A DNA stretch of 64,000 nt from Octopus vulgaris (Eukaryota), in NCBI GenBank assembly GCA_951406725.2, contig OX597827.1:71982001-72046000 (forward strand), given 5' to 3'. The notes beneath the pieces were generated by a model that saw only the letters and a program-made list of their open reading frames with translations, was not told the DNA's origin and did no database searches. This document shows positions 2,302-29,514 of the stretch, piece by piece. The position numbers were made by a program, and so were the translations under genes. The first letter of the stretch is position 1, and each line of letters opens with the position of its first letter.

Positions 2302-2403
2302 TTCATCATTTTCTTTCAGCTGTTTTGGAGGTGAATCGTTAAGTAATGGAGACTGTGAACGCTTCTTTGGATTGCTGGGTGGAGAATTCAAATCAGGAGC
2401 ACT
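2302..2403 (-). CDS. PAPOLA: PAP repeat exon R6 (SAPDLNSPPSNPKKRSQSPLLNDSPPKQLKENDE)
   Basis: 102 nt, phase 0/0, cttgcAG| ... |GTAAGT. Confidence 0.85.
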
Positions 2404-2594
2404 CTGCAAGAGACAATACATATGACTGGTCAGCTAGAAGAAAATTTTGAATCAAAGGCCTATGTGATCTCTTTTTAGACGTCCGTTCCAACCATTTATA
2501 ACATTAAACTATATATACATTTATAATTATCTAATAAATACAACAGAATCTCATAGCTGTATATACAACAACTTTCTGTTACCTATATATATAT

Positions 2595-2728
2595 ATGGAC
2601 CTTAAGTAATGCATATGTAAAATTTGAATGAAATCGATTGGGTAATTCTCGAGTTTTAGGGATTCACACAGACAGACAAACCCAACCGATTTCATTCAAA
2701 TTTTACATATGCATTACTTAAGGCCCAT
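2595..2728. repeat. Inverted repeat, about 49-bp arms
   Basis: atggaccttaagtaatgcatatgtaaaatttgaatgaaatcgattgggt and its near-perfect reverse complement at 2680-2728. Confidence 0.85.
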
Positions 2729-3214
2729 GGAGTGTCATGGGCCCAAAAAATTTTTCAACTTCTTGCCTAATGCAGAATTTTTCTGTTACTTCCTTCTGTA
2801 GAAATACACTTTTTGGTTCACAATGTATATTGTAAATTATGAATAATTTAGTAAGCTGATATTTGAAACAAATTAACACGAAGATTTAATGGGATGTTTT
2901 GATTTAGGTCGCTTGAAAACAAGAAGCTTATACAGGAGAACCAAGAGTCATTTTGGACAGGTTGGTATTAAAATAGTTAAATTTAACTAACTAAAAACTG
3001 TAGCAACAAACAGAACCTCATATATGATTAAAATATAACCATTTTTTGTCCCCAACCCATGCTAACATAGAAAGGGGTCATTAAATGTTGACAACAATTT
3101 TATAAGGAATAACAACAAACAGGCTCTCATTCATATGTATGTATATTGTTCTTTGTATCTTCTATCTGAATGTTTTGCGTTCTTGTCCCATTTTGTATTT
3201 TTATATATATATAT

Positions 3215-3435
3215 CATCATCGTTTAACGTCCGCTTTCCATGCTGGCATGGATTGGACGGTTTGACTGAGGGCTGGCAAGCCAGAAGGCTGCACCAGGCT
3301 CCAATCTGATCTGGCAAAATTTCTACAGCTGGATGCCCTTCCTAACACCAACCACTCCGAGAGTGTAATGGGTGCTTTTCGTGTGCCACCAGCACGAGGA
3401 CCAGTCAGGTGGTACTGGCATCAACCATGCTTGAA
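3215..3435 (-). mobile_element. SINE-like repeat (GGAAGGGCATCCAGCTGTAGAAA core, (ATG)n tail)
   Basis: Same element at about 19490, 23265, 26205, 32420-32910, 34130-34395, 37780 and 43085. Confidence 0.85.
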
Positions 3436-4865
3436 TGGTGCTTTTTACGTACCACCAGCACAGGACCAGTCTGCCAGCACTGGCATCAATCACACTCGAA
3501 TGGTGCTTTTTATGTGCCACCAGCACAGGACCAGTCTGCCAGCACTGGCATCAATCACACTCGAATGGTGCTTTTTATGTGCCACCAGCACAGGACCAGT
3601 CTGCCAGCACTGGCATCAATCACACTCGAATGGTGCTTTTTATGTGCCACCAGTACAGGACCAGTCTGCCAGCACTGGCATCAATCACACTCGAATGGTG
3701 CTTTTTATGTGCCACCAGCACAGGACCAGTCTGCCAGCACGGGCATCAATCACACTCGAATGGTGCTTTTTATGTGCCACCAGCACAGGACCAGTCTGCC
3801 AGCACTGGCATCAATCACACTCGAATGGTGCTTTTTATGTGCCACCAGCACAGGACCAGTCTGCCAGCACTGGCATCAATCACACTCGAATGGTGCTTTT
3901 TATGTGCCACCAGCACAGGACCAGTCTGCCAGCACTGGCATCAATCACACTCGAATGGTGCTTTTTATGTGCCACCAGCACAGGACCAGTCTGCCAGCAC
4001 TGGCATCAATCACACTCGAATGGTGCTTTTTATGTGCCACCAGTACAGGACCAGTCTGCCAGCACTGGCATCAATCACACTCGAATGGTGCTTTTTATGT
4101 GCCACCAGCACAGGACCAGTCTGCCAGCACTGGCATCAATCACACTCGAATGGTGCTTTTTATGTGCCACCAGCACAGGACCAGTCTGCCAGCACTGGCA
4201 TCAATCACACTCGAATGGTGCTTTTTATGTGCCACCAGCACAGGACCAGTCTGCCAGCACTGGCATCAATCACACTCGAATGGTGCTTTTTATGTGCCAC
4301 CAGCACAGGACCAGTCTGCCAGCACTGGCATCAATCACACTCGAATGGTGCTTTTTATGTGCCACCAGCACAGGACCAGTCTGCCAGCACTGGCATCAAT
4401 CACACTCGAATGGTGCTTTTTATGTGCCACCAGCACAGGACCAGTCTGCCAGCACTGGCATCAATCACACTCGAATGGTGCTTTTTATGTGCCACCAGCA
4501 CAGGACCAGTCTGCCAGCACTGGCATCAATCACACTCGAATGGTGCTTTTTATGTGCCACCAGCACAGGACCAGTCTGCCAGCACTGGCATCAATCACAC
4601 TCGAATGGTGCTTTTTATGTGCCACCAGCACAGGACCAGTCTGCCAGCACTGGCATCAATCACACTCGAATGGTGCTTTTTATGTGCCACCAGCACAGGA
4701 CCAGTCTGCCAGCACTGGCATCAATCACACTCGAATGGTGCTTTTTATGTGCCACCAGCACAGGACCAGTCTGCCAGCACTGGCATCAATCACACTCGAA
4801 TGGTGCTTTTTATGTGCCACCAGCACAGGACCAGTCTGCCAGCACTGGCACTGACCACACTCCAA
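3436..4865. repeat. Minisatellite, 22 x 65 bp, nearly identical units
   Basis: Unit tggtgctttttatgtgccaccagcacaggaccagtctgccagcactggcatcaatcacactcgaa recurs at 3436, 3501, 3566 ... 4801. Confidence 0.98.
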
Positions 4866-4881
4866 TGGTGCTTCTTAATTA

Positions 4882-4930
<49 letters not shown>

Positions 4931-4938
<8 letters not shown>

Positions 4939-5380
4939 ATATTTCTGAATGGTCATATTGTCAGTTTAGCCAATAAAAACACACGCACTATATATTTGGT
5001 GTTATTTTGCTTCAGTGATATTTATTTTTTACATTAATCTTAATCTTATTTCGGCCAAAGTTCTTTCGTCACACTCCTGTGACCGCATCAGTGGTCCTTT
5101 GTTTTCTTCTCACTTACTTGTGTCTCTCCTTACTAACCGTCAGCCATTTTGTATTTCTATTGTATGGCTGACGGTTAGTAAGGAGAGACACAAGTAAGTG
5201 AGAAGAAAACAAAGGACCACTGATGCGGTCACAGGAGTGTGACGAAAGAACTTTGGCCGAAATAAGATTAAGATTAATGTAAAAAATAAATATCACTGAA
5301 GCAAAATAACACCAAATATATAGTGCGTGTGTTTTTATTGGCTAAACTGGCAATATGACCATTCCGAAATATAACAATAT
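4931..5380. mobile_element. Long palindrome (217-bp arms, 16-nt loop), probably an inverted Penelope-like pseudo-LTR in a (TA)n tract
   Basis: 4931-5147 is the reverse complement of 5164-5380 with 2 mismatches; (TA)n on both sides; contains a hammerhead-like motif. The palindrome is certain, the family is inferred. Confidence 0.8.
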
Positions 5381-5434
5381 CTGTTTCAACACACGACTTC
5401 ACATAAAAAATCTTGCACAACAAATATTTAAACG

Positions 5435-5469
<35 letters not shown>

Positions 5470-5737
5470 GTAATCAGTTATAACAATCATATTCTCATTG
5501 AAATAATTAAAATGCAACTTATAGCTATAACAACAAACAGGTTGTCCTATATATCTAATTAAACATAACAAATCTAACAACAAACAGAATTTCCATCTGG
5601 CATAAACTAATTAGAAGCTATGCATGTTAATCCATGAATTATGAAATTAGTATGCAATTAAAACTGTGCTCGTCTTCAGCAAGAAATTTAACAGACAAAG
5701 GCAAGAATGATGATGATGATGAAAAAAAAAACGTTAC

Positions 5738-5836
5738 TTCTTTTTCTTTCATCTGTTTTGGAGGTGAATCATTAAGTAATGGTGACTGTGAACGCTTCTT
5801 GGGATTGTTGGGCGACGAATTCGTATCAGGAGCACT
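5738..5836 (-). CDS. PAPOLA: PAP repeat exon R5 (SAPDTNSSPNNPKKRSQSPLLNDSPPKQMKEKE)
   Basis: 99 nt, phase 0/0, cttgcAG| ... |GTAACG. Confidence 0.85.
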
Positions 5837-6059
5837 CTGCAAGAAACAAACAGATATTACATGTAAAGCGACCCAAAGCAGCACGTTGTGCTCTTAACCA
5901 GTTCTGCTTATTTAAAAAGATTTTCAAAAGTAAAATAAAGTGTAAAATCATTTTAAATAAGTGAAACCGGTTAAGTTAATAAATACTTTTAAAAGACTAC
6001 TGCTTTTTCAGATTCTTTTCCTTATATTTTTACTTTTGCAGTAACCCCCAACCCTACTT

Positions 6060-6113
<54 letters not shown>

Positions 6114-6854
6114 AAAAAATACAAACTGGGACAAGAACACAAAACATTTAGAAGACGATACAAAAAACAAGGACGGGACATTCGAAGCCTTCAATCTTCA
6201 GTCAAGAACCGGATCATCCTAGCAATTTCATTATATATATATATATCAAGGTACAGTGTGGTTGTGTGGTTAAGAAATTTGCTTCTCAATCACAATGCTC
6301 TGAATTCAGTCCCACTGCATGGCACCTTAGGCAAGTGTCTTCCCCTATAGCTTTGAGCCAACCAAGGCCTTAAGACAGAAACTCAAAGAAGCCTGTCATG
6401 TGTGTGGGTGTGTCTGTGTGTCCCCTTAATAGTTGTAATTTTGTGTCAGTGTCCCATAAGCTATACAATTCTTTTCCAATGTTCTGCAAAACCATGTTTG
6501 ACCATGTTCAGTTGGTAACAGGTAAGGATTGGCAACAGTAAGTGCCTCCAGCTGTAAAACAAAATCTGCCTCAACAACCTACACCCAACCCAAGCAGGCA
6601 TGGAAACGTGGATGTTAAAACTTACGCACTGAATAAGCCCTATCAACTAATAGATTCCCATTTTTAATATCAAATCGTAACAGCTCACTGTCTCTGCCCC
6701 AAGCCAATGAGGGAGCTTCTATGCACTGCTAGAAATAGCAAAACAGATCTCCCTCATATGCGTGGTTACCTGTCTAGGTGATAGTGTTACAAGACTAGAA
6801 ACTGGAGAAGTTTATTGCTGTTAGTATACAACAGTAGTTCACAGCCATTTTTTA

Positions 6855-7047
6855 TCTATTCCTTTACTTGTTTCAGTCATTTGACTGCGGCCATGCTGGA
6901 GCACCGCCTTTAGTCGAGCAAATCGACCCCGGGACTTATTCTTTGTTAAGCCCAGTACTTATTCTATCGGTCTCTTTTACCGAACCGCTAAGTGACGTAA
7001 ACACACCAGCATCGGTTGTCAAGCAATGCTAGGGGGGACAAACACAG

Positions 7048-7094
<47 letters not shown>

Positions 7095-7260
7095 TACGAC
7101 AGGCTTCTTTCAGTTTCCGTCTACCAAATCCACTCACAAAGCATTGGTAGGCCCGGGGCTATAGCAGAAGACACTTGCCCAAGATGCCACGCAGTGGGAC
7201 TGAACCCGGAACCATGTGGTTGGTTAGCAAGCTACTTACCACACAGCCGCTACTGCGCCT
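6855..7260 (-). mobile_element. tRNA-derived SINE (CORE-like CTTGGGCAAGTGTCTTC, internal TA/TG microsatellite)
   Basis: Full-length copy; homologous to copies at 11400, 47700, 52050, 55023, 59680, 61500 and 62095. Confidence 0.88.
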
Positions 7261-7516
7261 ATGGACCCTTTTGTTTATTATTTTATTCTGGTGAACCCCT
7301 ATAGCCACTCAATGTTTACAAACTAATTTTACAGATACTCCTTTCAAAATTCTTATTTGGTGATTGTATGTCACAGCTTAAAATCCCAACCATAGCATGA
7401 CCCCCACAATCAAATACACGAGCCCTTTAGATATCTCTTCCAAGTTTGTGCCGTCAATACAAAGATCTTGAAGACTGCTGAGAGATATAAAATATATTAA
7501 ATAAAACATTACTTAC

Positions 7517-7615
7517 TTCACTTTCTTTTATCTTTTTGGGGGTCAAATCATTATGAAGAGGTGATCTTGAGCGTTTTCGTGAACTGTTCGGTGAACAATT
7601 TGAATCAGGGACACT
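7517..7615 (-). CDS. PAPOLA: PAP repeat exon R4 (SVPDSNCSPNSSRKRSRSPLHNDLTPKKIKKSE)
   Basis: 99 nt, phase 0/0, cttctAG| ... |GTAAGT. Confidence 0.85.
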
Positions 7616-8724
7616 CTAGAAGAAGGAACACAGTACATGTAACAATGAAACATTTAGGATTTTTGAGGGATTTTCTGAAGTAAACAATACTGCCACCCAG
7701 TTCAATACAACTTCCTAAAAATCTTTGTGTTTTCTTTTTATTCTTAACTAAAACAGCAGCACCCCACCTTTCTCTCTCTCTCTCTTTGAGTCAATGTAGA
7801 GGAGTTACACTTGATGAAATCTCCAAGTGGTTCAAATGCCCAACTCTTGATAGCCAAGTGGCTAAAAAGCATCAGCAGAAGAGCATTCAGGAATCATGAC
7901 CTGGATGCAGCGCAGCCCACATACAGTGTAAGAAGTTAAGGGCCAAGACACTTGCCTGAGAGGGATTTCTTCTCTGAAGACCTTCTGATGTTCAGCTCTC
8001 GAGAGTTGTGCGTGTGTGTGTGTGTGCATACATTAATTCATACACATATTTCTTTCCCTTCTTTTGCTGGTTTCAGTCATAGGACACCCACTTAAATACC
8101 TTTAGCTGATTATATCGGGCCCCAATACTAATTTATTGAATTTGAAAAGAGAAAGGCAAAGTCTACCTGGACATAAAACAAACTAATCAAATACCATAAG
8201 GTATTTTTGATTAATGTTCATCTAACAGTGCTGCCTTCTGATTATGCATGCACACACACAAAGAATATATTTAACTTATTTTAATAATGGTCTATGGCCA
8301 TGCTGGGGCACCATCGTGAAGACTAGTCAAACAAATTGAACTTATTTTTTAAATATTGTACTGATTCTATTGGTCATTTTTGCCAAACCACCAAGTTATA
8401 AGGACATAAACAAACCAACATTGGTTGTCTAGCAATGGAGGAAGTGTGAGAAACACAAATCAAAGACCAAAATCAAGGCTGTGACCCAGCACGGATGCAG
8501 TCTAATGACTGAAACAAGTAAAAGGAAAAAAGATAGGGGTCCTTCCCAGGCTGTGGGGATTTGAAAAGATAATGACAATGTGTTTGAATGCTTACATTAT
8601 ATGCTACGTAGACATGGATGCTTGAAAAAACTAAGAGACATCATACTTCAACACTTCAAGATCAAATCTGATATGGCATATAATCAAACAACCTTTATGT
8701 TTTTTTAATTTTTTATTTACTCAC

Positions 8725-8823
8725 TTCATTTTCTTTCATCTGTTTTGGAGGTGAATCATTAAGTACTGGTGACTGTGAACGCTTCATTGCATTGTTGGGT
8801 GAAGAATTCAAATCAGGAACATT
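8725..8823 (-). CDS. PAPOLA: PAP repeat exon R3 (NVPDLNSSPNNAMKRSQSPVLNDSPPKQMKENE)
   Basis: 99 nt, phase 0/0, cttccAG| ... |GTGAGT. Confidence 0.85.
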
Positions 8824-9370
8824 CTGGAAGGAACAACAGACATCAATGGTCAACAAGGTGAATTTCTTTATTAAAAGACATTGAATCCAATGCTTGGTTT
8901 AATACTATTACCTGGTCCCTTAAGTGCTTTTTATTCAAGAGGGAAAAGGGGCAGTGTCCATGACCGTTTACATAGCCTCTGAGATTGACGGGATGGAGGG
9001 AAGAAGCTATCCTCAAACCAGAGGCCTGGCTGGAAGAAACTGGTGGATGACTAAGTCTATCAGGCAAGTAGAGCGCGGTGGAATTTAAAGTCAGAACACA
9101 AAGAGATGGAAAGAAATACTGTAAGATGTCTGGTTTGATTTCCTTAGCTCTACCAATCTACCGTCTTGGACTGATAGAACTATTTTTCATGTCACTCTCA
9201 AAGGGATAAAAGGCAGAGTTGAACTATCAGCACAAACAGTTATAATAAATACCACAGAGCATCCTGTCCCACCCCAACAACTCTACCAGTTCAATGCCAT
9301 TAATAGGAGATATCAAAAAATCTTGGAATTCAGATATTTTATTGAGTAAAATAGGTTTTTTTTTTTTTAA

Positions 9371-9664
9371 ACCAACTCCATGAAATTGCTGCCCCTAATT
9401 CTCTCATAAGTGGAGGTGCATGGCTTAATGGTCAGAATTGTGATCAGAAAATTTATCATCATCATTGTTTAACGTCCACATTCCATGCTAGCATGGGTTG
9501 GTCAGTTTGAGTGACGACTGGCAAGCCATTCAACCCATGCTAGCATGGAAAGCGGACGTCAAATGACGGATGATGGTAATGAATCTTCTGATCATAATTC
9601 TAACCACTAAGCAAAGCACCTCCACTTATGAGAGAATTAGGGGCAGCAATCTCAAGGGGTTGGT
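9371..9664. repeat. Fold-back inverted duplication, about 130-bp arms
   Basis: attgctgcccctaattctctcataagtggaggtgc...catgggttg versus caacccatg...gcacctccacttatgagagaattaggggcagcaat. Confidence 0.85.
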
Positions 9665-10321
9665 AGAAAAAAAATAATATAAAACTGTGGTTTCGATTCC
9701 TGGACCAGGTGATGTATTGAATTCTTGAGCAAAACACTTCCTTTCACATTGCCCCAGTCCACTCAGCCGGTAAAAATGAGTAATCCTGCAATAGACTGGC
9801 ATCTTGTCCCAGGGAGGAATATCAACACCAGAGAAACCAGGAAACCCGCCTGATGTTCCTTACGGAGTAATGTGGATTGACCAATTCTATCATACAAAAC
9901 AGTATGTTTTGAAGTTTTCATGATTATATTACAACCTTCCATCAAGATTTTTATGTAACAACTTTTTGTTGTGTTCAAAACCTAATAATAATAATTACAG
10001 AGCTATCTACTTTATTGAATTTCTTCAAATTCTTGATTCTTTTTGAAATTAACTGAAACACTGGTAGCAGAATTCCCTTCAAATCATCATTTAACATCCA
10101 CTTTCCTATGCTTGCATAGGTCGGATGGAATTCACAGAGACAGCAGGTGTTCTATGGCTGGATGCCCTTCCTGTCACCAACTCTCACCTGTTCCCAAGCA
10201 AAGTAATGTGCTTTCCCCAGAAGACTGGAGACAAACAACCTCGTTTCTACGACGATGAAGTTAATTTACAACCATTGTATGATGTCTAACGAAGGATTCA
10301 CACAAACACACACCCACATGT

Positions 10322-10625
10322 GGAGGCACATGGCCTAGTGGTTAGAGCAGCGGACTTGCGGTCAAGGGATCGCAGGTTCAAATCTCAGACTGGGCAATGT
10401 GTGTGTTTATGAGCGAAACACCTAAGCTCCACGCAGCTCCGGCAGAAGGTAATGGCGAACTTCTGCTGACTCTTTCGCCACAACTTTCTCTCACTCTTTC
10501 CTCCTGCATCTTGCAGCTCACCTGCAACACACTGGCATCTCATCCAGGTGGGGAACCTATACACCAAGGAAACCGGGAAACCAGCCCTTATGAGCCAGGC
10601 GTGGCTCGAGAAGGAACAAACAATA
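10322..10625 (+). mobile_element. tRNA(Arg-like)-headed SINE, third family
   Basis: GGAGGCACATGGCCTAGTGGTTAGAGCAGCGGACTTGCGGTC...GGTTCAAATC head, then body and (AAC)-like tail. Confidence 0.8.
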
Positions 10626-11399
10626 TATATATATACATGTGACAATTCCAGTTTCTGTCTACGAAATCCACTGGCAAAGCTTTGGGCAACCCAGGGCTCT
10701 TTAGTAGATGACACTTGCCCAAGGTAACATGCAGTGGTTGGAAAGCAAAAATCGTAACCACACAGCAATAAAAGAGCTAAAAGTTGGTAGATTGCGAGAA
10801 ACAGTAAAGCAACAGACAAAATGCCTTGCAGTGTTTAATCATGTTGTTCAAATTGAGTTCAGATCCTGCAGGAACAGAGCTTTAATTTCATTCATCCATC
10901 CATTATCACCAAACGTCCATTTTCCAAGCTGGCATGGGTTAGATGGTGTGACAGGAGATGACCACCTGAAGTGCTGTGCAGGGTTCACTGTCTATTTTGA
11001 CATGGTTTCTATGGCTGGATGCCCTTCCTAGCACCAAACACTTTACAGTGTGTACTGGGTGCTTTTTACATGGCATCAGCACTTACGAGCCCACAAAATT
11101 AGGGATGCTCAGCTAGAGAGGGATGCAGGGGACACGCCTGTATGCAAGGGCAACCATACTTAGCTTGGTGGTAAGCACAGCAAACCACCAGGGATCCCAA
11201 GCCCTTGTCACCACATCTGAATAATTAAAAACTGCAACCTTCCTAAATGTGTGTAGCCTTGAACCAATGGAAGAAATATATTTCAAATTCTTATTAATTT
11301 ATAAAAAGACATTCAATTTATTAGGTAACCTTTACATGGCCACTTGGTGCTGGAAACAGCAGTCAAATCATCCTGAAATGAAAGGACATGTAATTTCTT

Positions 11400-11770
11400 A
11401 GGCACAGGTGTAGCTGTGTGGTAAGAAGCTTGCTTCCCAACCACATAGTTCTGGGTTCAGTCCAACTGCATGGCACCTTGGGTAAGTGTCTTCTACTAAA
11501 GCCTCAAGCTGACCAAAGCATTGTGAGTGGATCTGGTAGGCAGAAACTGAAAGAAGCCCATTGTATTTGTGTATGTGTGTGTGTGTGTATATATATCTGT
11601 TCCTCCCATCACCACTTGACAACCAGTGTTGGTGTGTTTACAACCCTGTAACTTAGTGGTTCAGCAAAAGAGACTAATAGGATAAGTACGAGGCTTAAAA
11701 AATAAGTCCTGGGGTCAAGTTGTTCAACTAAGACCTTCCAAGGCAGTGCTCCAGCATAGCCACAATAAAA
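11400..11770 (+). mobile_element. CORE-like tRNA SINE copy
   Basis: Homologous to 6855-7260 in the opposite orientation. Confidence 0.85.
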
Positions 11771-11968
11771 GAGTAATGTAGTCTTGTATATACCAAACTA
11801 GAAGGGCAGTGGCAGCTGAAATGTCTTTGATGCTTGACCAGGACTGACTGTTGAATAGAAGACCTCCCACCCCTTTAAAATAATTCCTTTCAAGTTTGCA
11901 CCTTCTAAACCTATTGTTCTCAGAGAATACTGAGAAATATTAAAGATATTAAATAAAACATTACTTAC

Positions 11969-12067
11969 TTCACTTTCTTTTATCTTTTTAGGGGTCAAAT
12001 CATTATGTAGAGGTGACCTTGAGCGTTTTCGTGAACTGTTCGGTGAACAATTTGAATCAGGAATACT
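11969..12067 (-). CDS. PAPOLA: PAP repeat exon R2 (SIPDSNCSPNSSRKRSRSPLHNDLTPKKIKESE)
   Basis: 99 nt, phase 0/0, cttgcAG| ... |GTAAGT. Confidence 0.85.
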
Positions 12068-12086
12068 CTGCAAGAAGGAACACATC

Positions 12087-12153
12087 ACATGTAGCAGTGA
12101 AACATGTAGCAGTGAAACACATGTAGCAGTGAAACACATGTAGCAGTGAAACA
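12087..12153. repeat. 4 x 15-17-nt tandem repeat (acatgtagcagtgaa)
   Basis: Directly visible just upstream of the R2 acceptor. Confidence 0.9.
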
Positions 12154-12559
12154 CTTTGGTTTCTTCAGCTAACAGAAAGGTCTCTCCGCCCCATTCACTC
12201 AGTGAGTAGAACACTTCCGAGACAGTGTTTTGAAAGTGTGTCCATTAACTTCCATGGTATTATTCCTTCATTTCTTAGGCTCTCCACCATCTAATAATAC
12301 ACTAAACCTCTCTGCTAAATCACAAAGTAAACCCGACCCTTTAACCACGGTGTTTGACTTCAAAACTAAATTTGTGAATTTTTGCTAATCTACATGAATA
12401 AATAAAAAGTCCCAGAAATTCAAGAGGTTGATGGCAGAACTAGTTGAGCATCAGATGAAATACCTTGTGGTGTTTGGTTACATCCCTTTACATTCTGCAT
12501 TTGAATCCTACCCAGATCAACTTCCCATCATTCTGAGATAAATACAGTAGTCAATATGT

Positions 12560-12794
12560 GTTTCTTTATTACCCACAAGGGGCTAAACATAGATGGGGAC
12601 AAACAAGGACAGACAAACGGATTAAGTCGATTCCATCGACCCCCAGTACGTAACTGGTACTTAATTTATCGACCCCGAAAGGATGAAAGGCAAAGTCGAC
12701 CTCGGCGGAATTTGAACTCAGAACGTAGCAACGGGCGAAATACCGCGAAGCACTTCGCCTGGCGTGCTAACGTCTCTGCCAGCTCGCCGCCTTA
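12560..12794 (-). mobile_element. Nin/Deu-like tRNA SINE copy
   Basis: Homologous to 1869-2099; flanking direct repeat tagtcaata. Confidence 0.88.
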
Positions 12795-12974
12795 TTGACA
12801 ATAGTCAATACGGCCACAAAGAAAACAAAAGAAATTCCAAAGCAGGTTCCAAATTTGAAATCTCGTTATTTCCCTTTCGTTCCAATGTCATTTGTAATCA
12901 ATATTATAAACTTTACATTTTTGAAATTGGAATTCATAAAATTCAGCTACTTCAACCATTTCAATATGAATTAA

Positions 12975-13195
12975 CCCTTTAGTGTTTGCATTATTCTGCC
13001 AGAATTAATCCTTTTTTATCCACATTGCTTTGAACTAATCATGCATTATCTTGTAGCTATGAGATTATGATGAGGTAGCTGATAATTTTTAAGACGATAT
13101 TGTAGGGTTGGTGTAAGAGACCAGATGTGGCCAGTTTGAACATAAAACAGGCAGAATACTTCTGGCCGGATATGGCTGGTTTAAATGCTAAAGGG
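12975..13195. mobile_element. piggyBac-type MITE, 221 bp
   Basis: TTAA|CCCTTTAG ... CTAAAGGG|TTAA. Confidence 0.88.
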
Positions 13196-13527
13196 TTAAA
13201 AATTTCATGGGAAGTGGGGAAGAAAAGAAAAAAAAACCACTACTACTACTACAATAGCCTCTCTTCCTCACAGTTAGTTGTTTGCTAACTCCTTGCAAGT
13301 TATTTGTTAACCTCACTTGTCCTGGTGGCACAAGAAAAAACACCCAGTACACACTGTGAACTGGTTGACATTAGAAAGAGAATCAAGCTGAAGAAACCGT
13401 GCCAACTTGACACATCATCCCTGCAGCTCAACAGATCCTGTCAAACCGTCCAGCCTACACCAACATACAAAATGAATGAATGAATGGATGGATGGATGGA
13501 TGGATGGATGGAGGTGGTGGTGATGGT

Positions 13528-13976
13528 GAAGAAAAAAAGAAGAGAAAGGAGAAGAAAAAGAAGAGAAAGAAGAGAAAGGAGAAGAAAAAGAAGAGGAGGC
13601 GGTAGAAGAGAAAGGAGAAGAAAAAGAAGAGAAAGAAGAAGGAAGAAGAGGAAGAGAAAGAAGAGAAAGGAGAAGAAAAAGAAGAGAAAGAAGAGAAAGG
13701 AGAAGAAAAAGAAGAGGAGGAGGAAGAAGAAGAAGAGAAAGAAGAAGGAAGAAGAGGAAGAAGAAAAGGAAGAAGAAAAGGAAGAAGAAAAGGAAGAAGA
13801 GAAAGAAGAAAAGGAAGAAGAGGAAGAAGAAGGAAGAAGAGAAAGAAGAAGAAAAGGAAGAAGAGGAAGAAGGAAGATGAAGGAAGAAGAAAAGGAAGAA
13901 GAAGGAAGAAAAGGAAGAAGAGGAAGAAGAAGAAGAAGAAGAGGAAGATGATGAAGATGATGATGATGATGATGAC
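13528..13976. repeat. Polypurine (GAA/GAG/AAAG) tract followed by (GAT)n
   Basis: About 420 nt of almost pure purine on the + strand. Confidence 0.95.
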
Positions 13977-14407
13977 TGAAGTCTGACAGGTTCATCTCCT
14001 CTCTTTGTTCATTATGTGTCTTTTCTCTCAGACTTCCTAAACTAACTCTTCTGCCAATTCTCCCCTCTCAGAACTTTTCACTCTCGGGAATTGCCTTCTT
14101 TCCTAAATGTCAAAGTCGCAGCTGCACAGCCTGAACCTTGGCTGCACCAATTTCACCCATCTCATAGGGTCAGTGAAGATCCTGGACACAATTCCTTCTT
14201 CCTGAGTAAAAACCAATTTTAAAAAAAACAAAAAGGACAACGAGGGAGAGAATACAGAATATTCTTTGAGCATGTTTTTGTTTTTTTTTTTTGTTTCGAA
14301 CTTTGCCGAGGCAAAGAGAAAAGGAAATAGAATACAAAAAAAAAAAAAGAAGAAAAAAAATCAAGCAAGCAGAACAAAAGAGAGAAACAAGTGATAATTG
14401 AATTTAC

Positions 14408-14509
14408 ATCTTCATCTTCTCCTGTAGTTTTGGAGGTTGAATCATTATGTTGAGGAGATCGTATGCGTTTTCGTGAACTGTTTAGGGAACAATTCAAATC
14501 AGGAGTACT
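14408..14509 (-). CDS. PAPOLA: PAP repeat exon R1 (STPDLNCSLNSSRKRIRSPQHNDSTSKTTGEDED)
   Basis: 102 nt, phase 0/0, tttcAG| ... |GTAAAT; paralogous to R2-R6 and the most diverged. Confidence 0.78.
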
Positions 14510-20017: not shown

Positions 20018-20096
20018 ACTAGAAGTTTTCCTTCGGTCTTTATTTAATTTTCCCCTGTTTAACACATCTTTTGGTAAGTATTGGTCTAGCTGTTTC
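20018..20096 (-). CDS. PAPOLA: PAP exon, NLS1 region (KQLDQYLPKDVLNRGKLNKDRRKTSS)
   Basis: 79 nt, ccAG| ... |GTAAGT; homologous to RKQLHQLLP...KKKK. Confidence 0.92.
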
Positions 20097-21554
20097 CTGG
20101 AAAGCACAACAATATAGAATATAAGCAAATACATGTGATAACCCAGCTAAAGCATGCATAGCCAGACCACTGACATGATCCAGTATAACATTATTAAATA
20201 CATCACAACATCGATATTACATAAGAAAACATCTCACAAACACTAATATTCAGGTTTATCTTTCCAAGAATTTATAAAGAAGTTTTGAAATTATATCTAC
20301 AATGAAACCACAAGCACACACTCACGCACACAAGCTTTGCAGTTTTTACCTAATATTGCCTAGTTTATGTTTTTATCAAAGGTAGTAGGTAGTGATTTTC
20401 TTCGCTACTTCAGGGAGTAACAACCTTGCCTGACAAGAGTCCCAGGTTCAGCTGGCTCCGGCTGACAGTACCCGGTATGGGCCCCTATCCAGGGTTACGG
20501 AAAGGAAACAACTTTCAAAGTAATCCGGAATGGAGTCCCATAGGTGGTTTAGTGTTCGACTCGACACTCTTCCAGAAGCTCCTACAACCAAGCTGGTGCC
20601 AAAAGTAATGCTCTGCACTCCTTTGGACTACATCAGCAAAGCCAAGAGAGGAATCCCAACGATTGGGCTACCCAGGATTTTCTTATATCTTCTTACAGTT
20701 TTGCCCAGGCCTGAGCAAAACTGGAGAGGACATGAAATGTAAAAACCAGACAGGATTAGTTTATGCGCAACTCCATTGTCTCCTGAGACAAAAGGATGCC
20801 AACAACGTTTTTACTTCTATCTCCTCCCTCTCAAGGTTTATCTATAAAGAGCTGCAGCTTTAAACAGTCTACAGCAATCTAGGCGCCAACTAGAAAATAT
20901 ATTGTCTGGTTCTTCAGGCCACTTTCTAGTACAGCCTGGTAACATGTACCATAATTTCAGTAATTGTTTTAGATGCCAGAGCAGTCATGAGTAGACATAG
21001 GCACCTTCTTGACCCTCTGACCCATTTCACCTACTGCAATGGTTCTCAATAAGAGTCCACACAAGATTTTGTTGTTAAAATTTATGTGGAATAAATTGGT
21101 TATACTTCTACAATACACAAAATATTTCAATGATTTTTTAAATACAATTCCAAATATTTAATTATAATCATAATAGGGCTTTTTTTAAACATTGAATGTT
21201 TATCGGGGTCCAATAGAGTAAAACAGGAACCAAAAAGGTCCATAGGCAAAAAAAACCCACTGTGCTAGTGGCACATCCAGGAATGAAACCTAGAGGGTGT
21301 GAGAGTGAGCTGCACCAGTACCCAGCTGGTATTCCATTGTCAGTTGACTGGAGTAGCACAAAATGAAATGACTTACACACGAACAAAATGTGGCAACTGG
21401 TGCATGAATTGAACTCATGACATTATGGTCTGGAGTCAACCACCCTAGCTACAAGGCCACATGTCTTCAGTGAAAACTAATATGCAAGAACATTTCCAGT
21501 TCTTAGAGCCAACCTTGTGTGTAATAATTTTTTTAGAAATGAACGATTACTTAC

Positions 21555-21624
21555 CTCTTTACGTGCTTTATATCAATTGTCATATCCTCTTTGTACAGTT
21601 TTATTTGGACAGCCTGTTTGTAAA
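21555..21624 (-). CDS. PAPOLA: PAP exon (VYKQAVQIKLYKEDMTIDIKHVKR)
   Basis: 70 nt, ttttcAG| ... AG|GTAAGT; homologous to VYRQAINSKMFEVDMKIAAMHVKR. Confidence 0.93.
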
Positions 21625-22602
21625 CTGAAAACAACAACACCCCCTGTCAGTCAAGTCAAACAGAATTGCAAAATAATTGAAATTACACAAAAGAAAAATC
21701 AAACAGTTAATCCTATGACACAGACTCACAGATCCTTGGTCCTCGTTTCCAATTTTTCATGGGAACATGTCTGACCATGGGGAAACATTACCTGGCTTGG
21801 AAACAGGTGAAAATTTGCAACAACAAGGACATCTAGATGTAGAAAATCTGCTCCAACGAATTCCATCTGATGCATGCAAGCATGGAAAATTGATGTTTAA
21901 TAGACAGGCAGATTCAATGCAGTTCTCATCCTCAACCAGTTTTGCAGTATGCTGTATGGAGGTAAACATGGACAGCCTTTCCATGTCTGCTCTGGGTAGC
22001 AAAATTTTTCTATAGACTGTTTCTATGGACTTCACTAGAAGGGGGGGGGTTACCATTTTTTTTAAATAAGAAGAGGTTGTTGCTAGTTCATAGCTCAACA
22101 ATCTTTTATTAATCCAGGCCCAAGACTGGCTGGTATCCACATTTAGATAGCAATAAATGGAAATTGCTGGTTCTCAGAAAAGGAACCAGGGTTTGGGTGA
22201 GGGTTATTTCTTTTATTAACACTGGAAGGATGAAAAGCCAAATTAACCTCCACAGGATTTGAACACAGAAGACAAACAGCCAGAATGAATACTGCAAGGC
22301 ACTTTGCTCTGTGCATTAGTCCTGCTAATTGATCAACAACAGAGATCAGTAGCTGCTTTTTCAATACACTTAGCTTTATTCCCAACAGGACACAAAAAGG
22401 TCGTGCTATAGGTCCTGATCATTAATTAACCAAGAGTCTTTGCTTTACAACAAACACGTAGCAGCCAATATGCAGTAAAACTATATATTATCATTACCAA
22501 CAGAGAGAGCAGTTAGCTTTTTCTATCATCTTCACTCATACATATATGAGAGAAAGAGAGAAATATGTTGTACCATTTTGCGTTAGTTTGGATTATAATA
22601 CC

Positions 22603-22639
<37 letters not shown>

Positions 22640-22816
22640 TATATATCTATGTGTGTATATCTATTTATATATTTATCCATGTATGTATGGATATATATAT
22701 ATATATAAGCTCAACCAGCCAGTGTGATACTGGCGATATCATTTGCAGTACCTATCACCTGGCTGGCTGGCAGAACTTAAAACATGAAACAAATGAAAAA
22801 ATTAGAATCAACTTAC

Positions 22817-22920
22817 CAATATCTATGAAACCTTGAATATCATGAGTCAGGTCTACATTTATGGTTTCAAACTTATTAAAATCCAAACCAATGAACCACT
22901 GGCACATATATTTATCCTCA
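22817..22920 (-). CDS. PAPOLA: PAP exon (SEDKYMCQWFIGLDFNKFETINVDLTHDIQGFIDI)
   Basis: 104 nt, ttttcAG| ... G|GTAAGT; WxIGL...VDLTxDIQ motif. Confidence 0.95.
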
Positions 22921-25129
22921 CTGAAAACAAGGCAGAGAAAAAGAAAACATTTCAAAAAAGAGAAGGAAAAATATGCTATAACCATCACCTGGTAACAATA
23001 AGATATTCTATTTTCAAACCTTAAGTACCAAATATTTTACTTCAGCAACAATTATCTTGGCCCCCTATCACACACACATTTGAATAATTTGAATTTAGTC
23101 AGAACCAGCTTAGTTGCAAAATGGTGAAATAAAATTACATTGCAGGGACCAAGATCGCAATCACTTTTCTTTTTATTAGAAATTAGAGTGAGACTAGCAG
23201 AAAAATCTATGTGCAAAGATAAATTGAAGGCCAACAAAGCAGTAGATTTATATATATATCCTCATCACCATCATTTAATGTCCATTTTCCATGCTAGCAT
23301 GGGTTGGACAGTTCAACCGGGGTCTGGAGGCTGCGCCAGGCTCCAGTCTGATCTGGCAGTGTTTCTACAGCTGGATGCCCTTCCTAACACCAACCACTCC
23401 GTGAGTGTAGTGGGTGCTTTTTACATGCCACAGGCACAGGGGCCAGAGGAGGCTGGCAACGACCACGATCGGCTGGTGCTTTTTATGTGCCACCGGCACG
23501 GAAGCCAGCCAAGGCAGCACTGGCATTTGCCATGTTCGGATGGTGCTTTTTACGTGCCACCGGCACTGGTATCACAACAACAATTTCCATTTGATTTTTA
23601 TTTTGATGTACTTGACTCAATAGGTCTCCTAGGTAGACTACAATTGATACATACATATACGGATTTAATTACGATAGAATTGTCCAATCTAAAACATATC
23701 TTAATACATTCGGAATATAAAGAGATAGAAATATAAAAATATATGAATGCTAAAACTATGCATGGGAGCATTCCTTGGAAGTGAACCGTAAGATTCACAT
23801 GTACTCTTTGAATATACTCTAGAAATGGTTGTCAGAATACTCTATTTCCTTTAAATATGGTACTAAAAACTCTTTTTAAACATCTATTACTCCCCCCATT
23901 CCATAATTTATTTTGTTTTTTTTTCATATTTCATTATTTTTATCTATACTCTATTATATTTATATATCTATATATTTATTTGTCCATGCATATTTTTAGC
24001 ATTCACACATTTATATATTTCTATATCTTTATATTCTGAATGTATTAATATGTGTTTTAGATTGGACAACTATCATAATTAAATCCATATATGTATGTAT
24101 CAATCGTAGTCTGCCTGATTTGAACCTCTTCTCTCTATCTCTCATACTTGTCTGGTGTCTCGGGTCTGACTCAAGCACTTCTATGCTTTCTATACTTTTC
24201 AAAAGAAAATTATAATTACACACACACACACACACGTGCTACTTGAACCACAAGTGGTGAGTCAAGAGAGTTTGGCAGTCGCTGGTTGATAGCTATACAA
24301 AATGAGCTTTTCACAAGATGATTCATAATCCATGCAATCAAATACAGTCAACATCATGACTGACTAATTTAATTACTTCAAGGTGATGAACCAACAAAAC
24401 TAGCTCTGCACGGTCACTGGAGCTGTTAGAAATAGCACAGATATTTCTTGCAAAGCCCAACCTGCTACCATCTTAGATAATGTAATTCTACATACATCTA
24501 AAATGATAGGATTGTCATGGTTGGAAGGTTTGTGTTATAAGTGTGCTCATTCAGTGTTGACCTGAGGTTCATTCGTAAAAACTACCAGGTTTAGCATGTA
24601 CTGTCATGCCCTTATCTGAATTACGTGAAGGCCATCGTCTTGTAACATTTCATGATGAATAGAATGCAGAGATACACAGCTACAAAAATTATCTTGGGTC
24701 TTGTCCGCCAGTGTCAGACAGGTCAATGGTGATAAATATCTACTAGAATGAACAGTTGTCTAGACAGAATTCAGAAAAGTCCAACTTATTAGCAAACCCT
24801 TTTTAATACCAAATTACCTCAGTCAGCTTCTAGGTCTATGCTACAAAACCAACTATTTTAAAGTAATATTCTTAGCCTTTTTGTTTTTATTTTCTGACAT
24901 TGCCATGTGATGTTTGAGTGCCACTGGGAGTCTGCTCAGTTGAAAGTATCCAGGCCAGCCTGCCCGCCCACTTTCTACCCTAGATCTCAGAAGCTTTGCT
25001 ATCAGAAACAAACTACAACTTTGCATCATAATTTTATGTAAGGACTTTTCATTTAGGTATGTTCTGAAAACCAGGTTAAAATACCAATCATTGACTTCTG
25101 TAAAATGATCCAACAAATATCAGCTTAAT

Positions 25130-25171
<42 letters not shown>

Positions 25172-25172
<1 letters not shown>

Positions 25173-25402
25173 TTTTTTATTGCCCACAAGGGGCTAAACA
25201 TAGAAGGGACAAACAAGGACAGACAAACAGATTAAGTCGATTACATCAACCCCAGTGCGAAACTGGTACTTTATTTATCGACCCCGAAAGGATGAAAGGC
25301 AAAGTCGGCCTCGTCGGAATTTGAACTCAGAACGTAACGACAGACGAAATACTGCTAAGCATTTCGCACAACGCGCTAACGTGTCTGCCAGCTCGCTGCC
25401 TT
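25172..25402 (-). mobile_element. Nin/Deu-like SINE in a (TA)n tract
   Basis: Homologous to 1869-2099. Confidence 0.88.
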
Positions 25403-25480
25403 TATATATATATATATATTTATACACACACACACATACATACAAACATTGACAAAAAAATAAGAGAAATGAAATCTTAC

Positions 25481-25591
25481 CTTTCGTTTAATGGCTTGAA
25501 AGCTTCAGGATTGACATGGGCAATTTTTATGTACCTATTCCTTTCTAGATTGCCTACTAACAAACGAATTTTTGACTCAATGTAACCATGC
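25481..25591 (-). CDS. PAPOLA: PAP exon, RNA-binding domain (HGYIESKIRLLVGNLERNRYIKIAHVNPEAFKPLNE)
   Basis: 111 nt, tcAG| ... AG|GTAAGA; ESKIR.LVG.LE motif. Confidence 0.95.
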
Positions 25592-26822
25592 CTGAAATGA
25601 AATCCAACAAGCTTTGCTAATTAAGCTAATTATGAACAGCTGAAAAACAAAAGCTGCATTTGGCAAACTAAATAAAAAGAAAAGATAATGATAAATTTCA
25701 TAGGAACTTTGAAATGAGGCAATAATTTTCCATATCTACTTCAGGTTAGTCTACTTAATGATATTATCATGAACATCTCTGAATTTTAACCTCCTGAAAA
25801 TTTTGTAAACAAAAATGCCTGCGATAAGATATAAAGATTTGAGAGCAAAATGAAGTTCAACGCAAAATGTACTTGGTCATAGTAATCATAATAAAATTAA
25901 TTCAGATTTTATATTTAATTGGCACAAGATAAATCTTTTGGGAAGGCCACTGAGAATGTACAATATACAGCACTGTATTTTTTTTCTAAGGCCATTTTCT
26001 GCAGTGAATGTAACAAAGGGGCCTCAACTAAGTTGCAAAAGATTATTTTTCAATCTCTTACAGATAGTGAAACTATATATAAACTACACTGATCTTACCC
26101 AAGCTGAGAAATTAGCAGAGTCCCCTTATTTAGTTCTTAGCCACTGCTATCTCCAATGCCAATTTGATGAAAAGGGCCATAAAGCTCCTCGTGTTAAATA
26201 TTCATCATCATCATCATTTAGCGTCCGCTTTCCATGCTAGCATGAGTTGGACAGTTCAACTGGGGTCTGGGAAGCCAGAAGGCTGCACCAGGCCCAGTCT
26301 GATCTGGCAATGTTTCTACGGCTGGATGCCCTTCCTAACGCCAACCACTCTGTGAGTGTAGTGAGTGCTTTTTACATGCTTTTTAAATATTTTTTTTTTT
26401 TTTTTTTATTTTACAAGTTTCAGTCATTGGATTCTTACCATACTGGAGCACTGTAAATATTCAGCTGCTGATAATCAATGCCAATGCTTATTTCATTGAT
26501 TATGGGAGAGAAAGGCCAAGCCGACTTGGGTGTAAAAGGACACAATAAAACAAGGCATGTTTGTTCCATGCTCTACCAAATCTTCCATCCAATACCAGCA
26601 TTTCCATCTCTCAAAATTCCAATAACATGTCTTTGATCAACCCAAGACACTTGCCAAACAGGCTGTGATTGAACCCAGAATGGCACAGACGCACAAAGCA
26701 AACCACAAATGAGCCCACCCACCCACAACCATCACAACCAAAGTATCTTGGCTGAAATACATCGAGAAGACAGGATAAAAATATAAAAGAATATAAAAAA
26801 ACCATGTAAAAGAATCCCTTAC

Positions 26823-26876
26823 CATTCTAAGTAATGCATGTCTGTTTCTGCTCGTGCTATAACAACAATGTAATGT
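26823..26876 (-). CDS. PAPOLA: PAP exon (RHYIVVIARAETDMHYLEW)
   Basis: 54 nt, tttcAG| ... TG|GTAAGG; homologous to KHYIVLLASAPTEKQRLEW. Confidence 0.94.
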
Positions 26877-27774
26877 CTGAAAGAAATCAAAAGAGAGATA
26901 AATGACATCAATGCCATGAAAAGACAGAATTCATTCATTCATAAATTAACATAATACATAAATATATAATTGACATATATGATTAGCATAATATATGGAT
27001 GCATAAAGATTAGGTCGGATAAGCTAGAAAGACAGGATATTCAAAGAAATAAGAAACGTTAGCAGCCCAGGCAAAACGCTTAGCGAGGATAACAAACACT
27101 GCAGTACTAGAAAAGTTGAAGTCCAAAGACACCGGTTGTTGAGAACTGAATCCACATAACTTTCACATTTTGGACACGAGTCACTGTCCAAGATTATTAT
27201 TTAACAAGAGGTGTTGAAAGGAAGAGAACAAGAAGATGTCAAAGACATTTGTGAACTGAAGAATTGATGACCTCAAAGAAGAGTTTGGCTGAATGCACAA
27301 AGCCCATAAGCAGAGGTGAGTAACTGATGCTAGCTTTTTTTCTTTAATAAAATTTGTGATCAAAACAACTGTCTTGGACTTCCTCTGAAAGGTCAGCAGA
27401 AAATAGTTTCAGGATGACATGCTCATCACACACCTAGCTTATTGATTAGACATCTTTCAAGAGATGAGTAAGTTAATTCATTTTTACAAGGAAACATTTC
27501 TTCCATTGTCAATATCCAAGATATGATGAATGCCTTGTTTCAACAAATGAATCTTTAGCAGAAGCCAGCCAACATCAAAAATATTGCTATGGTTACCAGG
27601 ATAGACCAATTTCTTCATAAGTTCAGGTGATAAACAATTGTGTAGAGTGGTAAATGTGAGAGGCCTGTCCAATGCATACCAACACGGAACAATGAATATA
27701 AAATGACAACAGTATCCTTGGCAACTTAATGAACAGTGAAACATAAACCCAACTTTGTTAGGAATGACTCCTAC

Positions 27775-27859
27775 CTGTATTTTTGAAAAAATGGTGCTGG
27801 TTCAAATAATTTACTCCAATCCTCTTTGTTTTCCAAGATTCGAGACACAACTTCCAAAC
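27775..27859 (-). CDS. PAPOLA: PAP exon (GLEVVSRILENKEDWSKLFEPAPFFQKY)
   Basis: 85 nt, tcAG| ... AG|GTAGGA. Confidence 0.95.
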
Positions 27860-28414
27860 CTGAGAAATATTTAATTAGAAATTAATTTTTTGAAATTTTT
27901 GCTTGTATCTGTAAATTTTCATCAAAACAGATGTAACTTATAGATAAATTGAAATATATTTATGGATAATCATTAACTGTAAAATTAAAACAATAGAGAT
28001 AAAGGAATATATATATATTTCCAATTCTAAGAAAAGAAAAAACTTCTAGGATATTTCAAATTATGCCATTATTTTCAAGATGGGGTGCACACTGCACTGG
28101 TAGGGTATATTAATTTGGTAGGGGATGAGTTACTTCAGAATAAATATAAAAAGTACATCATCAACTTAACAATAGTGCTTTGTTTTAAGAAGGAGCAGAG
28201 TTTACAACCAAATTTTTTTTTAAATACTACAGTAATTCTTTGAAAATGATAAATGAATGAGGCTTTAAACAAGCTTCATCCTTTAACATACAAGCATTCC
28301 AGTAACATACAATGGTTAACAACAATTCCTTCAGCTTCTATAAAACCCCTCGTGGAATCTTAACATTCTTTTGAAATAAGGAATCACAATCAAAGAAATG
28401 CTTAGAGAGATTCA

Positions 28415-28573
<159 letters not shown>

Positions 28574-29438: not shown

Positions 29439-29514
29439 CCTTGGGTCCCAAACAGTGAAACCCAGTTTGTTTTCTGGTTCCAAATGTTTCAATAGTACAG
29501 GTTGAGGCCAACTC
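29439..29514 (-). CDS. PAPOLA: PAP exon (SWPQPVLLKHLEPENKLGFTVWDPR)
   Basis: 76 nt, ccAG|G AGT TGG ... AGG|GTGAGT. Confidence 0.96.

Follow-up and report, generated by a model that had tools for sequence, protein, structure and literature searches.

A splice-variable array of six duplicated NLS2-like exons in the tail of an octopus poly(A) polymerase

A canonical poly(A) polymerase (PAP) gene of Octopus vulgaris carries six tandemly duplicated exons (E1 to E6) in the region encoding the C-terminal tail of the enzyme. We propose that these exons are duplicated copies of an NLS2-like/CDK motif, and that skipping of E2, or of E1 together with E2, likely switches the tail from two intact NLS2 to one and trims predicted phosphosites; we consider this account about evenly poised between right and wrong. 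In the best reading, splicing of the array would switch the enzyme between one and two NLS2 copies and at the same time determine how many S/T-P sites it has (13 to 19), the function being predicted. Isoforms of the gene in automated annotation and splicing of PAP tails are already known; hence, the octopus array is a testable lead and not a new kind of system.

The window analyzed is a 64,000-nucleotide stretch of O. vulgaris contig OX597827.1, and the exons of the host gene map to its minus strand. The upstream coding exons (20018..39525, with the ATG at 39525) encode three domains and an NLS1 region near residues 480-505. In protein P0012, Pfam domains PF20750 (residues 15-209), PF04928 (215-359), and PF04926 (from 363) follow each other in the NTPase, central, and RNA-binding order of a canonical nuclear PAP. 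The closest PDB matches of the octopus protein were PAP-gamma and PAP-alpha (E<1e-200). The tail begins with an S/T-rich exon (18368-18012; 119 aa, protein 508-626), the final exon ahead of the array, and ends with the coding part of the last exon (910-812; 32 aa plus stop), which encodes a conserved C-terminal PAP peptide. Comparable C-terminal ends are present in mollusc, hemichordate, and vertebrate PAP homologues.

Between these two exons lie, all on the minus strand, E1 (14408..14509; 102 nt, 34 aa; a degenerate A-type unit), E2 (11969..12067; A-type, the main cassette exon), E3 (8725..8823; B-type), E4 (7517..7615; A-type), E5 (5738..5836; B-type), and E6 (2302..2403; 102 nt, 34 aa; B-type); E2 to E5 are each 99 nt and 33 aa long. 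The original prediction of six homologous, spliceable segments was confirmed: each is in phase 0/0, lacks a stop codon, and has a GT donor and a YAG acceptor with 14 to 16 pyrimidines per 22 nt. Pairwise identity among the six is 62-95%, and the introns between copies are repeat-rich and 1.1-3.3 kb long. A profile of the six exons found no seventh or decayed copy in the window (six matches with E<1e-23; the next at E=0.16). A genome search with E5, in which only the best candidates were scored, gave five matches among six candidates and none outside the array; a retrocopy is therefore an unlikely source of the RNA joints described below.

The copies appear to be under selection, as had been proposed. 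In any one reading frame, only 18.6% of the 99-nt windows in the array region lack a stop codon; therefore, six stop-free copies out of six are unlikely by chance (about 4e-5 if the copies are assumed independent, which they are not fully). The dN/dS ratio is below 1 in 14 of 15 exon pairs, with E2/E4 at 0.06 and E3/E6 (1.26) as the sole exception, and all 15 pairs are more alike in the exons than in the flanks. The same units also occur in three Octopus species and Argonauta. E2 and E4 are 95% identical and have homologous intron flanks, a likeness that probably stems from recent duplication or gene conversion; the unit tree, built on 33 columns and largely unresolved, is compatible with both.

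Its sequence identifies the unit as a copy of a PAP tail motif that is ancient and, as a rule, single-copy. This motif has the spacing of a bipartite NLS and carries CDK-type sites. Of 120 homologue tails, 93 contained the motif and 27 were without its strict form; among 2400 shuffled tails, 91 contained it. An independent profile combined 20 single-copy motifs, drawn from gastropods, worms, a brachiopod, a hemichordate, and vertebrate PAP-gamma. Against this profile, E2 to E6 score 20-23 bits (0/300 shuffles each) and E1 scores 6 bits (1/300 shuffles). The unit is most likely the NLS2 of PAP, judging from its pattern, from the position of the motif in PAP-gamma proteins (residues about 641-700, a place similar to that of mouse NLS2, K656-657), and from its presumed match to the NLS2 of vertebrate PAP-alpha. 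With the classical bipartite pattern defined as two basic residues, a spacer of 10-12, and three basic residues out of five, E2 and E4 match and E1, E3, E5, and E6 do not. E2 combines the full bipartite pattern with a full CDK consensus site. E1 retains the first basic cluster and has lost the second cluster and the full CDK site. The B-type units keep SP and SPPK, and their second basic cluster is lost or weakened; in E3 it is weakened, and the CDK consensus is kept in the window. The array holds 17 of the 19 S/T-P sites of the tail and five of its six full CDK sites within 200 aa, a clustering of S/T-P and S/T-P-x-K/R sites as predicted for a multi-site CDK substrate tail. A folded solenoid repeat is disfavored by composition (13% hydrophobic residues vs 38% in the core). 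The Atlas returned no match for residues 627-826, which is uninformative.

Splicing was examined in contigs from runs that were marked 'RNA?' or unlabelled, none being on record as RNA; they were treated as RNA because the contigs skip introns exactly. Skipping was read from contig break points; assembly loses rare paths, and the contigs carry neither ratios nor tissue labels. A k=31 graph simulation recreated the observed break points. E2, or E1 together with E2, was skipped in six of eight runs (X1, X3, X5, X7, X10, and X13), representing five of six studies, the calls for X13 and X5 being based on assembled lengths and not on letters; no skip was seen in runs X15 and X17. In run X10, the S/T exon was joined directly to E3. 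Some runs assembled the skipped form as their sole path, and others did not contain it. The break points place frame-preserving exons both in and out of mRNA, and the alternative that all six units are always included as a constitutive repeat fails on these skips.

Twelve RefSeq isoforms were examined as well. They use 7 of the 64 combinations, far from the free use of all subsets once envisaged. Each has four to six units and 791-858 aa, and E6 is present in all 12, which leaves no place among them for a predicted one-repeat form of about 691 aa. The all-six product, predicted at 858 aa, equals RefSeq isoform X1 in two Octopus species, and five isoforms (all six, -E2, -E5, -E1, and -E1E2) are annotated alike in two Octopus species. 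A tail length that varies by in-frame splicing, as originally predicted, is thus found in RNA contigs and RefSeq isoforms. E1 was skipped together with E2 in RNA and is skipped by itself in RefSeq X4. In two species, RefSeq X3 lacks E5, whereas all RNA runs examined were free of E5 skips. The -E1, -E5, -E3E4, and -E4E5 forms are known from RefSeq models alone. All 12 isoforms retain E2 or E4, which is weak evidence because losing both requires a double skip that is rare anyway.

RNA editing in the repeats was considered and set aside: the exon differences are few (S/T exon, E3, and E5), all trace to runs under the second organism code, and they look like species alleles or E6 placed on E3. Looping of inverted repeats as the cause of skipping is unpersuasive. 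Inverted pairs flank nearly all exons; the best surround E1 and E3+E4, and the main cassette E2 has a weak pair only. Intronic polyadenylation after E4 is suggested by two old O. bimaculoides models and is neither supported nor excluded by the runs.

E2 and E4 are 88-91% identical to their Argonauta counterparts, the S/T exon is 84% identical, and B-type units are 45-70% identical. The full bipartite pattern occurs in E2 and E4, in Argonauta units 1 and 3, and in units 1 and 3 of P0005 and P0021. By this comparison, E2 and E4, the units keeping the full NLS pattern, are the conserved copies. P0004, P0005, and P0021 are cephalopod-like proteins, placed in a sister lineage from a tree, and P0004 is missing exactly the first intact unit of P0021. 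The sister-lineage proteins repeat both the intact-decayed-intact order and the skipping of the first intact unit. A triplet of this intact-decayed-intact type, present in a cephalopod ancestor of octopods and the sister lineage, is the probable origin of the array. The motif is also duplicated in several unrelated lineages, and the view of the array as unique to this PAP is not supported: oyster PAP isoforms have one to four copies, and mussels, some teleosts, and a hemichordate have two. A literature search listed nothing on PAP tail arrays in molluscs or cephalopods, a weak result since subscription papers were outside the search.

In vertebrates, mouse NLS2 is described as bipartite with K656-657, and its loss makes PAP cytoplasmic (PMC10908868); acetylation blocks importin binding, and 14-3-3 drives PAP to the cytoplasm (PMC2874999). 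In the proposed octopus switch, E4 would act as a near-constitutive NLS2 and E2 as an optional second one, and E1, E3, E5, and E6 would be decayed copies that serve as spacers with extra S/T-P sites. By analogy with PAP-alpha, an enzyme with more intact NLS2 may bind importin-alpha more tightly and be better retained in the nucleus, and modification of the linker sites (phosphorylation by CDK/ERK, or acetylation) or their binding by 14-3-3 might release the enzyme or alter its activity. Several observations temper this scheme. A second NLS2 may be redundant, since the enzyme also has NLS1. Mouse oocyte PAP is activated by phosphorylation, and the phosphorylated sites, S537/545/558, fall outside the NLS2-bearing 605-745 fragment (PMC8191758). 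The B-type copies evolve fast, as the E3/E6 ratio indicates. If the switch is real, splicing would adjust the import-signal valency of a housekeeping enzyme.

A wider account makes the NLS2/CDK motif an ancestral mollusc cassette exon, multiplied independently and spliced as a dosage dial for nuclear PAP retention; we offer it tentatively. Isoforms that skip the motif are present in chiton, snail, oyster, and cephalopods. Copies number three to six in cephalopods and two to four in oysters and are found in other animals too, and their independent multiplication, a part of the same account, is equally tentative. If the account is true, splicing would set how much PAP is available to polyadenylate mRNA in the cytoplasm of oocytes or neurons.

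The array may instead be a tolerated expansion, in which a symmetric exon was duplicated in a disordered tail, one intact NLS2 suffices, and skipping of near-identical neighbors is harmless leakiness. The rapid divergence of B-type copies between Octopus and Argonauta and the decay of E1 agree with this, and motif duplication in unrelated lineages is expected of an easily duplicated phase-0 exon. Most tandem duplicated exons are reported to become constitutive (PMC8373072), and the S/T tail is described as dispensable for activity in vitro (PMC6309179). However, the optional E2 is as well conserved as E4, the order of units and the skipping of the first intact one recur in the sister lineage, and a skipped form that is the only path in some runs and missing in others is unlike low-level noise. 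We find a tolerated expansion doubtful.

The array could also set the number of proline-directed/RS-like sites, tail length, and charge, and thereby a CDK1/ERK or 14-3-3 threshold. Octopus isoforms carry 13-19 S/T-P sites compared with 5 in Aplysia and 8 in a mammalian PAP-gamma, most of the octopus sites are in the array, and the B-type units hold on to SP and SPPK despite losing the second basic cluster. Vertebrate PAP is repressed by M-phase hyperphosphorylation (PMC6309179, PMC2874999, PMC10908868). Nevertheless, conservation is concentrated in the two units with intact basic clusters and not in the site-bearing B units, and the common skips shift the site count modestly, from 19 to 16 or 14. 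As the principal role of the array, such a threshold is unlikely. It would resemble the control of other multi-site tails and is compatible with the NLS2 switch.

The joints between units bear on the two weakest alternatives. The S/T exon-E1, E3-E4, and E4-E5 joints were found at exact intron ends in four of four runs and the E2-E3 joint in two of four; the E1-E2 connection is a loose end in RNA contigs, and E5-to-E6 was read indirectly (X17 record 16). None of the RNA stretches examined spans E6 or the last exon. E1 to E6 are neither mutually exclusive nor freely combined. A Dscam-like choice of one exon out of six, one of the modes first suggested and in keeping with the shared phase of tandem homologous exons, is highly improbable and is refuted for the runs examined, since consecutive copies are joined in RNA and no RefSeq isoform has fewer than four units. 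Dead pseudo-exons or an assembly artefact, to which the repeat-rich introns might point, are refuted by the exact-end spliced joints, purifying selection, and units shared by three Octopus species and Argonauta, and their probability is negligible.

In the octopus gene, a single PAP tail motif occupies an exon by itself and varies in copy number by splicing; at least two mollusc lineages have multiplied it. It provides a natural allelic series for NLS2/CDK motif function and for dosage control of the place and timing of PAP.

The nearest known system is vertebrate PAP-alpha (PAPOLA), whose C-terminal regulatory tail has an NLS2, CDK sites, and alternative 3' exons. It shares with the octopus enzyme a canonical PAP core and a tail that is S/T-rich, contains a basic motif of bipartite type together with S/T-P sites, and closes with a conserved peptide; in both, alternative splicing affects the tail only (PMC6309179, PMC10908868). 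PAP-alpha differs in having one NLS2 and splice forms that exchange last exons (PAP I, II, IV, VIII, and IX; PMC6309179, PMC10908868), and the role of alternative C-termini in canonical PAP is called unclear (PMC6309179). Octopus has six copies of the NLS2-like exon itself, and splicing varies their number. Dscam1-type clusters, as catalogued in PMC8373072, likewise consist of adjacent homologous internal exons (62-95% identity and the same phase here), but they swap one variant for another, whereas octopus copies are co-included and the motif number changes. Oyster PAP arrays resemble the octopus array in having the motif in tandem with one copy constant, according to annotation and not DNA-level exon structure (Crassostrea virginica X1-X4, Magallana gigas X1-X7, Ostrea, and Saccostrea). 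RefSeq copies per isoform are 4/3/2/1 in C. virginica and 3/2/2/1 in M. gigas. Because the oyster units are 42-44 aa long, differ in sequence, and form a branch separate from cephalopods, the oyster array is likely an independent expansion. In tau 3R/4R, splicing of one of several homologous repeats alters the valency of a disordered region. The tau sequence is unrelated, and the octopus repeat is a predicted import/phosphorylation motif on a core RNA-processing enzyme.

Six homologous exons (E1 to E6, in transcript order) lie on the minus strand in the tail of a canonical poly(A) polymerase (PAP) gene: E1 at 14509-14408 (102 nt), E2 at 12067-11969 (99 nt), E3 at 8823-8725 (99 nt), E4 at 7615-7517 (99 nt), E5 at 5836-5738 (99 nt), and E6 at 2403-2302 (102 nt). 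As originally noted, 6/6 have a pyrimidine tract, YAG, GT, and phase 0/0, and are stop-free. No seventh copy was found within the window. When the 2.8-Gb genome was searched with E5, five of six candidates matched, every match inside the array. E1, E2, and E4 form group A, in which E2 and E4 share 95% identity and homologous flanks; E3, E5, and E6 form group B (identity 88-89%). Exon identity exceeded flank identity in 15/15 pairs, and dN/dS was below 1 in 14/15, single values being noisy in these 33-codon comparisons. The B-type exons have low dS (0.10-0.28) and near-background flank identity, which suggests exon-limited gene conversion or splicing-signal constraint.

Inverted repeat-element pairs surround E1 (12971-13199 vs 16171-16399, 91% over 229 nt) and E3 plus E4 (6880-7261 vs 11399-11770, 73% over 397 nt); the pair around E2 is weak. 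Long pre-mRNA duplexes could arise from such intronic pairs. The E5-E6 intron carries 23 copies of a 65-nt unit (3371-4877, 98% matches) and an adjoining 450-nt stretch (4931-5380) that is 96% self-complementary.

The S/T-rich exon upstream of E1 (S/T exon, 18012-18368, minus strand) matched Octopus and Argonauta PAPs in the databases. The exons of the 858-aa protein lie in the window between the ATG (39525) and the stop (812); the protein contains the three canonical PAP domains, and its best solved-structure matches are PAP-gamma and PAP-alpha. Window residues agree with the named O. vulgaris model P0006 in all three units that P0006 contains. P0006 (1176 aa) places a C2H2 zinc-finger protein before PAP. 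Nothing in the window matches the zinc-finger part, the PAP ATG is preceded by a splice acceptor, and the RNA contigs extend no farther than about 1.6-1.8 kb upstream of the S/T exon; the fusion is therefore probably a prediction error. Two older O. bimaculoides models (P0018 and P0019) end by reading 20 aa through the E4 donor (7516 downwards), and the window has hexamer poly(A) signals 229 and 237 nt downstream. These models represent either an intronically polyadenylated form without the terminal peptide or a broken-assembly artefact.

The S/T exon was present in 18 of the 24 runs listed, and eight runs from six studies were examined. Contigs were compared with 5000-13400 and 14050-18500, four runs each; E6 and the last exon (coding part 812-910) lie outside both. 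On the first stretch, exact intron-end joints were found for E3-E4 and E4-E5 in 4/4 runs and for E2-E3 in 2/4; on the second, the S/T-E1 joint was found in 4/4. A loose X15 contig end beyond E1 is the start of E2. In X17, record 16 continues from E5 into E3-like sequence with eight differences, which fits E6. Consecutive copies are therefore co-included, and the mutually exclusive one-of-six use once proposed is contradicted.

Skipping was inferred from contig break points against a k=31 simulation built on window alleles, in which each form has a distinct signature; the pieces found agree with these signatures. Assembly loses rare paths and the contigs have no tissue labels; they show presence, not ratio or regulation. 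In X10, a 2200-nt contig ends in E3 and matches three further bases, as only the S/T exon end would give, and a 221-nt E3-E4-E5 piece is also present, which indicates skipping of E1 and E2. In X13, S/T-E1 followed by 88 nt points, by its length, to E2 skipping. The 221-nt piece and free 88-nt E3 of X5 suggest that E2 is absent and that E3 is reached by two routes. Mixed forms are indicated in X3 (three forms; contigs stop one base past the S/T exon, with a 132-nt E1 piece), X7 (break one base past E1), and X1 (depth 8.9 for E2-E3 vs 21.2 for E3). No skip was seen in X15 and X17, from one study, within the stretches compared. By contig break points, which indicate presence only, E2 skipping occurs in 6/8 runs and 5/6 studies. 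The predicted in-frame alternative splicing is thus borne out for E2 and E1+E2.

In agreement with the contigs, RefSeq annotates seven O. sinensis isoforms (X1-X7: all six, -E2, -E5, -E1, -E3E4, -E4E5, -E1E2) and five of O. bimaculoides (X1-X5: all six, -E2, -E5, -E1, -E1E2). These 12 isoforms use 7 of 64 combinations with 4-6 units each, far from free use of any subset; other clusters may contain further isoforms. E6 is present in 12/12, as is E2 or E4. The -E3E4 and -E4E5 models were given low weight because they could result from mis-mapping between E2/E4 or E3/E5.

A single-copy motif, KR-x-x-SP followed by 5-8 residues, (S/T)P, and a basic cluster, is found in the homologue tails of Aplysia and other gastropods, Lingula, nemerteans, annelids, a priapulid, a hemichordate, and vertebrate PAP-gamma. 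Built from 20 single copies, excluding cephalopods and bivalves, a profile scored E2-E6 at 20-23 bits (reached by 0/300 shuffles) and E1 at 6 bits (1/300). The pattern occurs in 93/120 homologue tails vs 91/2400 shuffled tails, counted as clusters, not species; 27 of the 120 clusters have no copy, 71 one, 18 two, 2 three, and 2 five. Its spacing is that of a bipartite nuclear localization signal (NLS), and its position in PAP-gamma resembles that of NLS2, the second nuclear-import signal, in PAP-alpha. The unit likely corresponds to PAP-alpha NLS2. According to the available part of PMC10908868, mouse PAP-alpha has a bipartite NLS2 downstream of the S/T region (lysines 656-657), whose inactivation sends PAP to the cytoplasm. 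The strict bipartite pattern is present in E2 and E4 and in 0/4 of E1, E3, E5, and E6.

Argonauta has five units (A, B', A, B, B), with the strict pattern in units 1 and 3. E2 and E4 are 88-91% identical to its A units and the S/T exon 84%; E3, E5, and E6 match the units at the corresponding positions with 45, 70, and 68% identity. The cephalopod-like proteins P0005 and P0021, a fully supported sister clade to octopods, have three units (intact-decayed-intact), and what a third such protein, P0004, is missing is precisely the first intact unit of P0021. Together with E2 skipping, this makes the optional exon the first apparently intact signal in both lineages.

Duplication, co-inclusion, E2 and E1+E2 skipping, motif homology, and two intact conserved copies are established. 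We lean about evenly towards an NLS2-dosage switch as their function: skipping E2 would leave PAP with one instead of two predicted importin-alpha sites, which may be modulated by phosphorylation of the linker or modification of the lysines. The available sections of PMC2874999 and PMC6309179 report that, in vertebrates, tail acetylation prevents binding to importin, PAP bound by 14-3-3 is inhibited and relocates to the cytoplasm, sumoylation increases nuclear localization, and M-phase hyperphosphorylation lowers activity. Since NLS1, the first import signal, is also present, extra NLS2 copies could be redundant; a merely tolerated expansion is possible but unlikely, set beside the two conserved intact copies. 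A mainly phospho-count role appears doubtful. The array holds 17/19 predicted tail S/T-P sites and 5/6 full CDK sites, and isoforms range from 13 to 19 S/T-P sites; a simple CDK account is disfavoured by mouse oocyte PAP-alpha, in which the available text of PMC8191758 reports activating phosphorylation at S537/545/558 and none in residues 605-745. The remaining readings together are very improbable.

The array is not peculiar to the octopus gene: two copies of the motif occur in Mytilus, Ptychodera, and several teleost PAP-gamma proteins, and a coral carries two or three units that resemble it loosely. Oysters (P0291, P0056, P0292, P0293, P0307, and relatives) have, by annotation, their own splice-variable array of 1-4 copies; annotated isoforms carry 4, 3, 2, and 1 copies in C. 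virginica (X1-X4) and 3, 2, 2, and 1 in M. gigas. Some teleost PAP-gamma isoforms (P0103, P0097, P0104, P0109, and others) continue past the standard C-terminal peptide into a second copy of the motif region. In 7/7 mollusc isoform pairs, chosen after inspecting tails, the inserted or deleted segment bears the motif; they include Gigantopelta (only copy lost) and a chiton (degenerate copy). Isoforms of Mytilus (P0031), Argopecten (X2), and Porites (X3) differ in other segments, and tail splicing is thus not confined to motif-bearing segments. No description of a mollusc PAP tail exon array was found in the literature searched, which did not extend to subscription papers, and the array isoforms are already present as automated models. 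In the parts available, PAP tail splicing is described as known but of unclear significance (PMC6309179), and tandem exon duplication as common and usually constitutive in outcome (PMC8373072). The array is real and spliced, and elaborates a regulatory tail already known in PAP.
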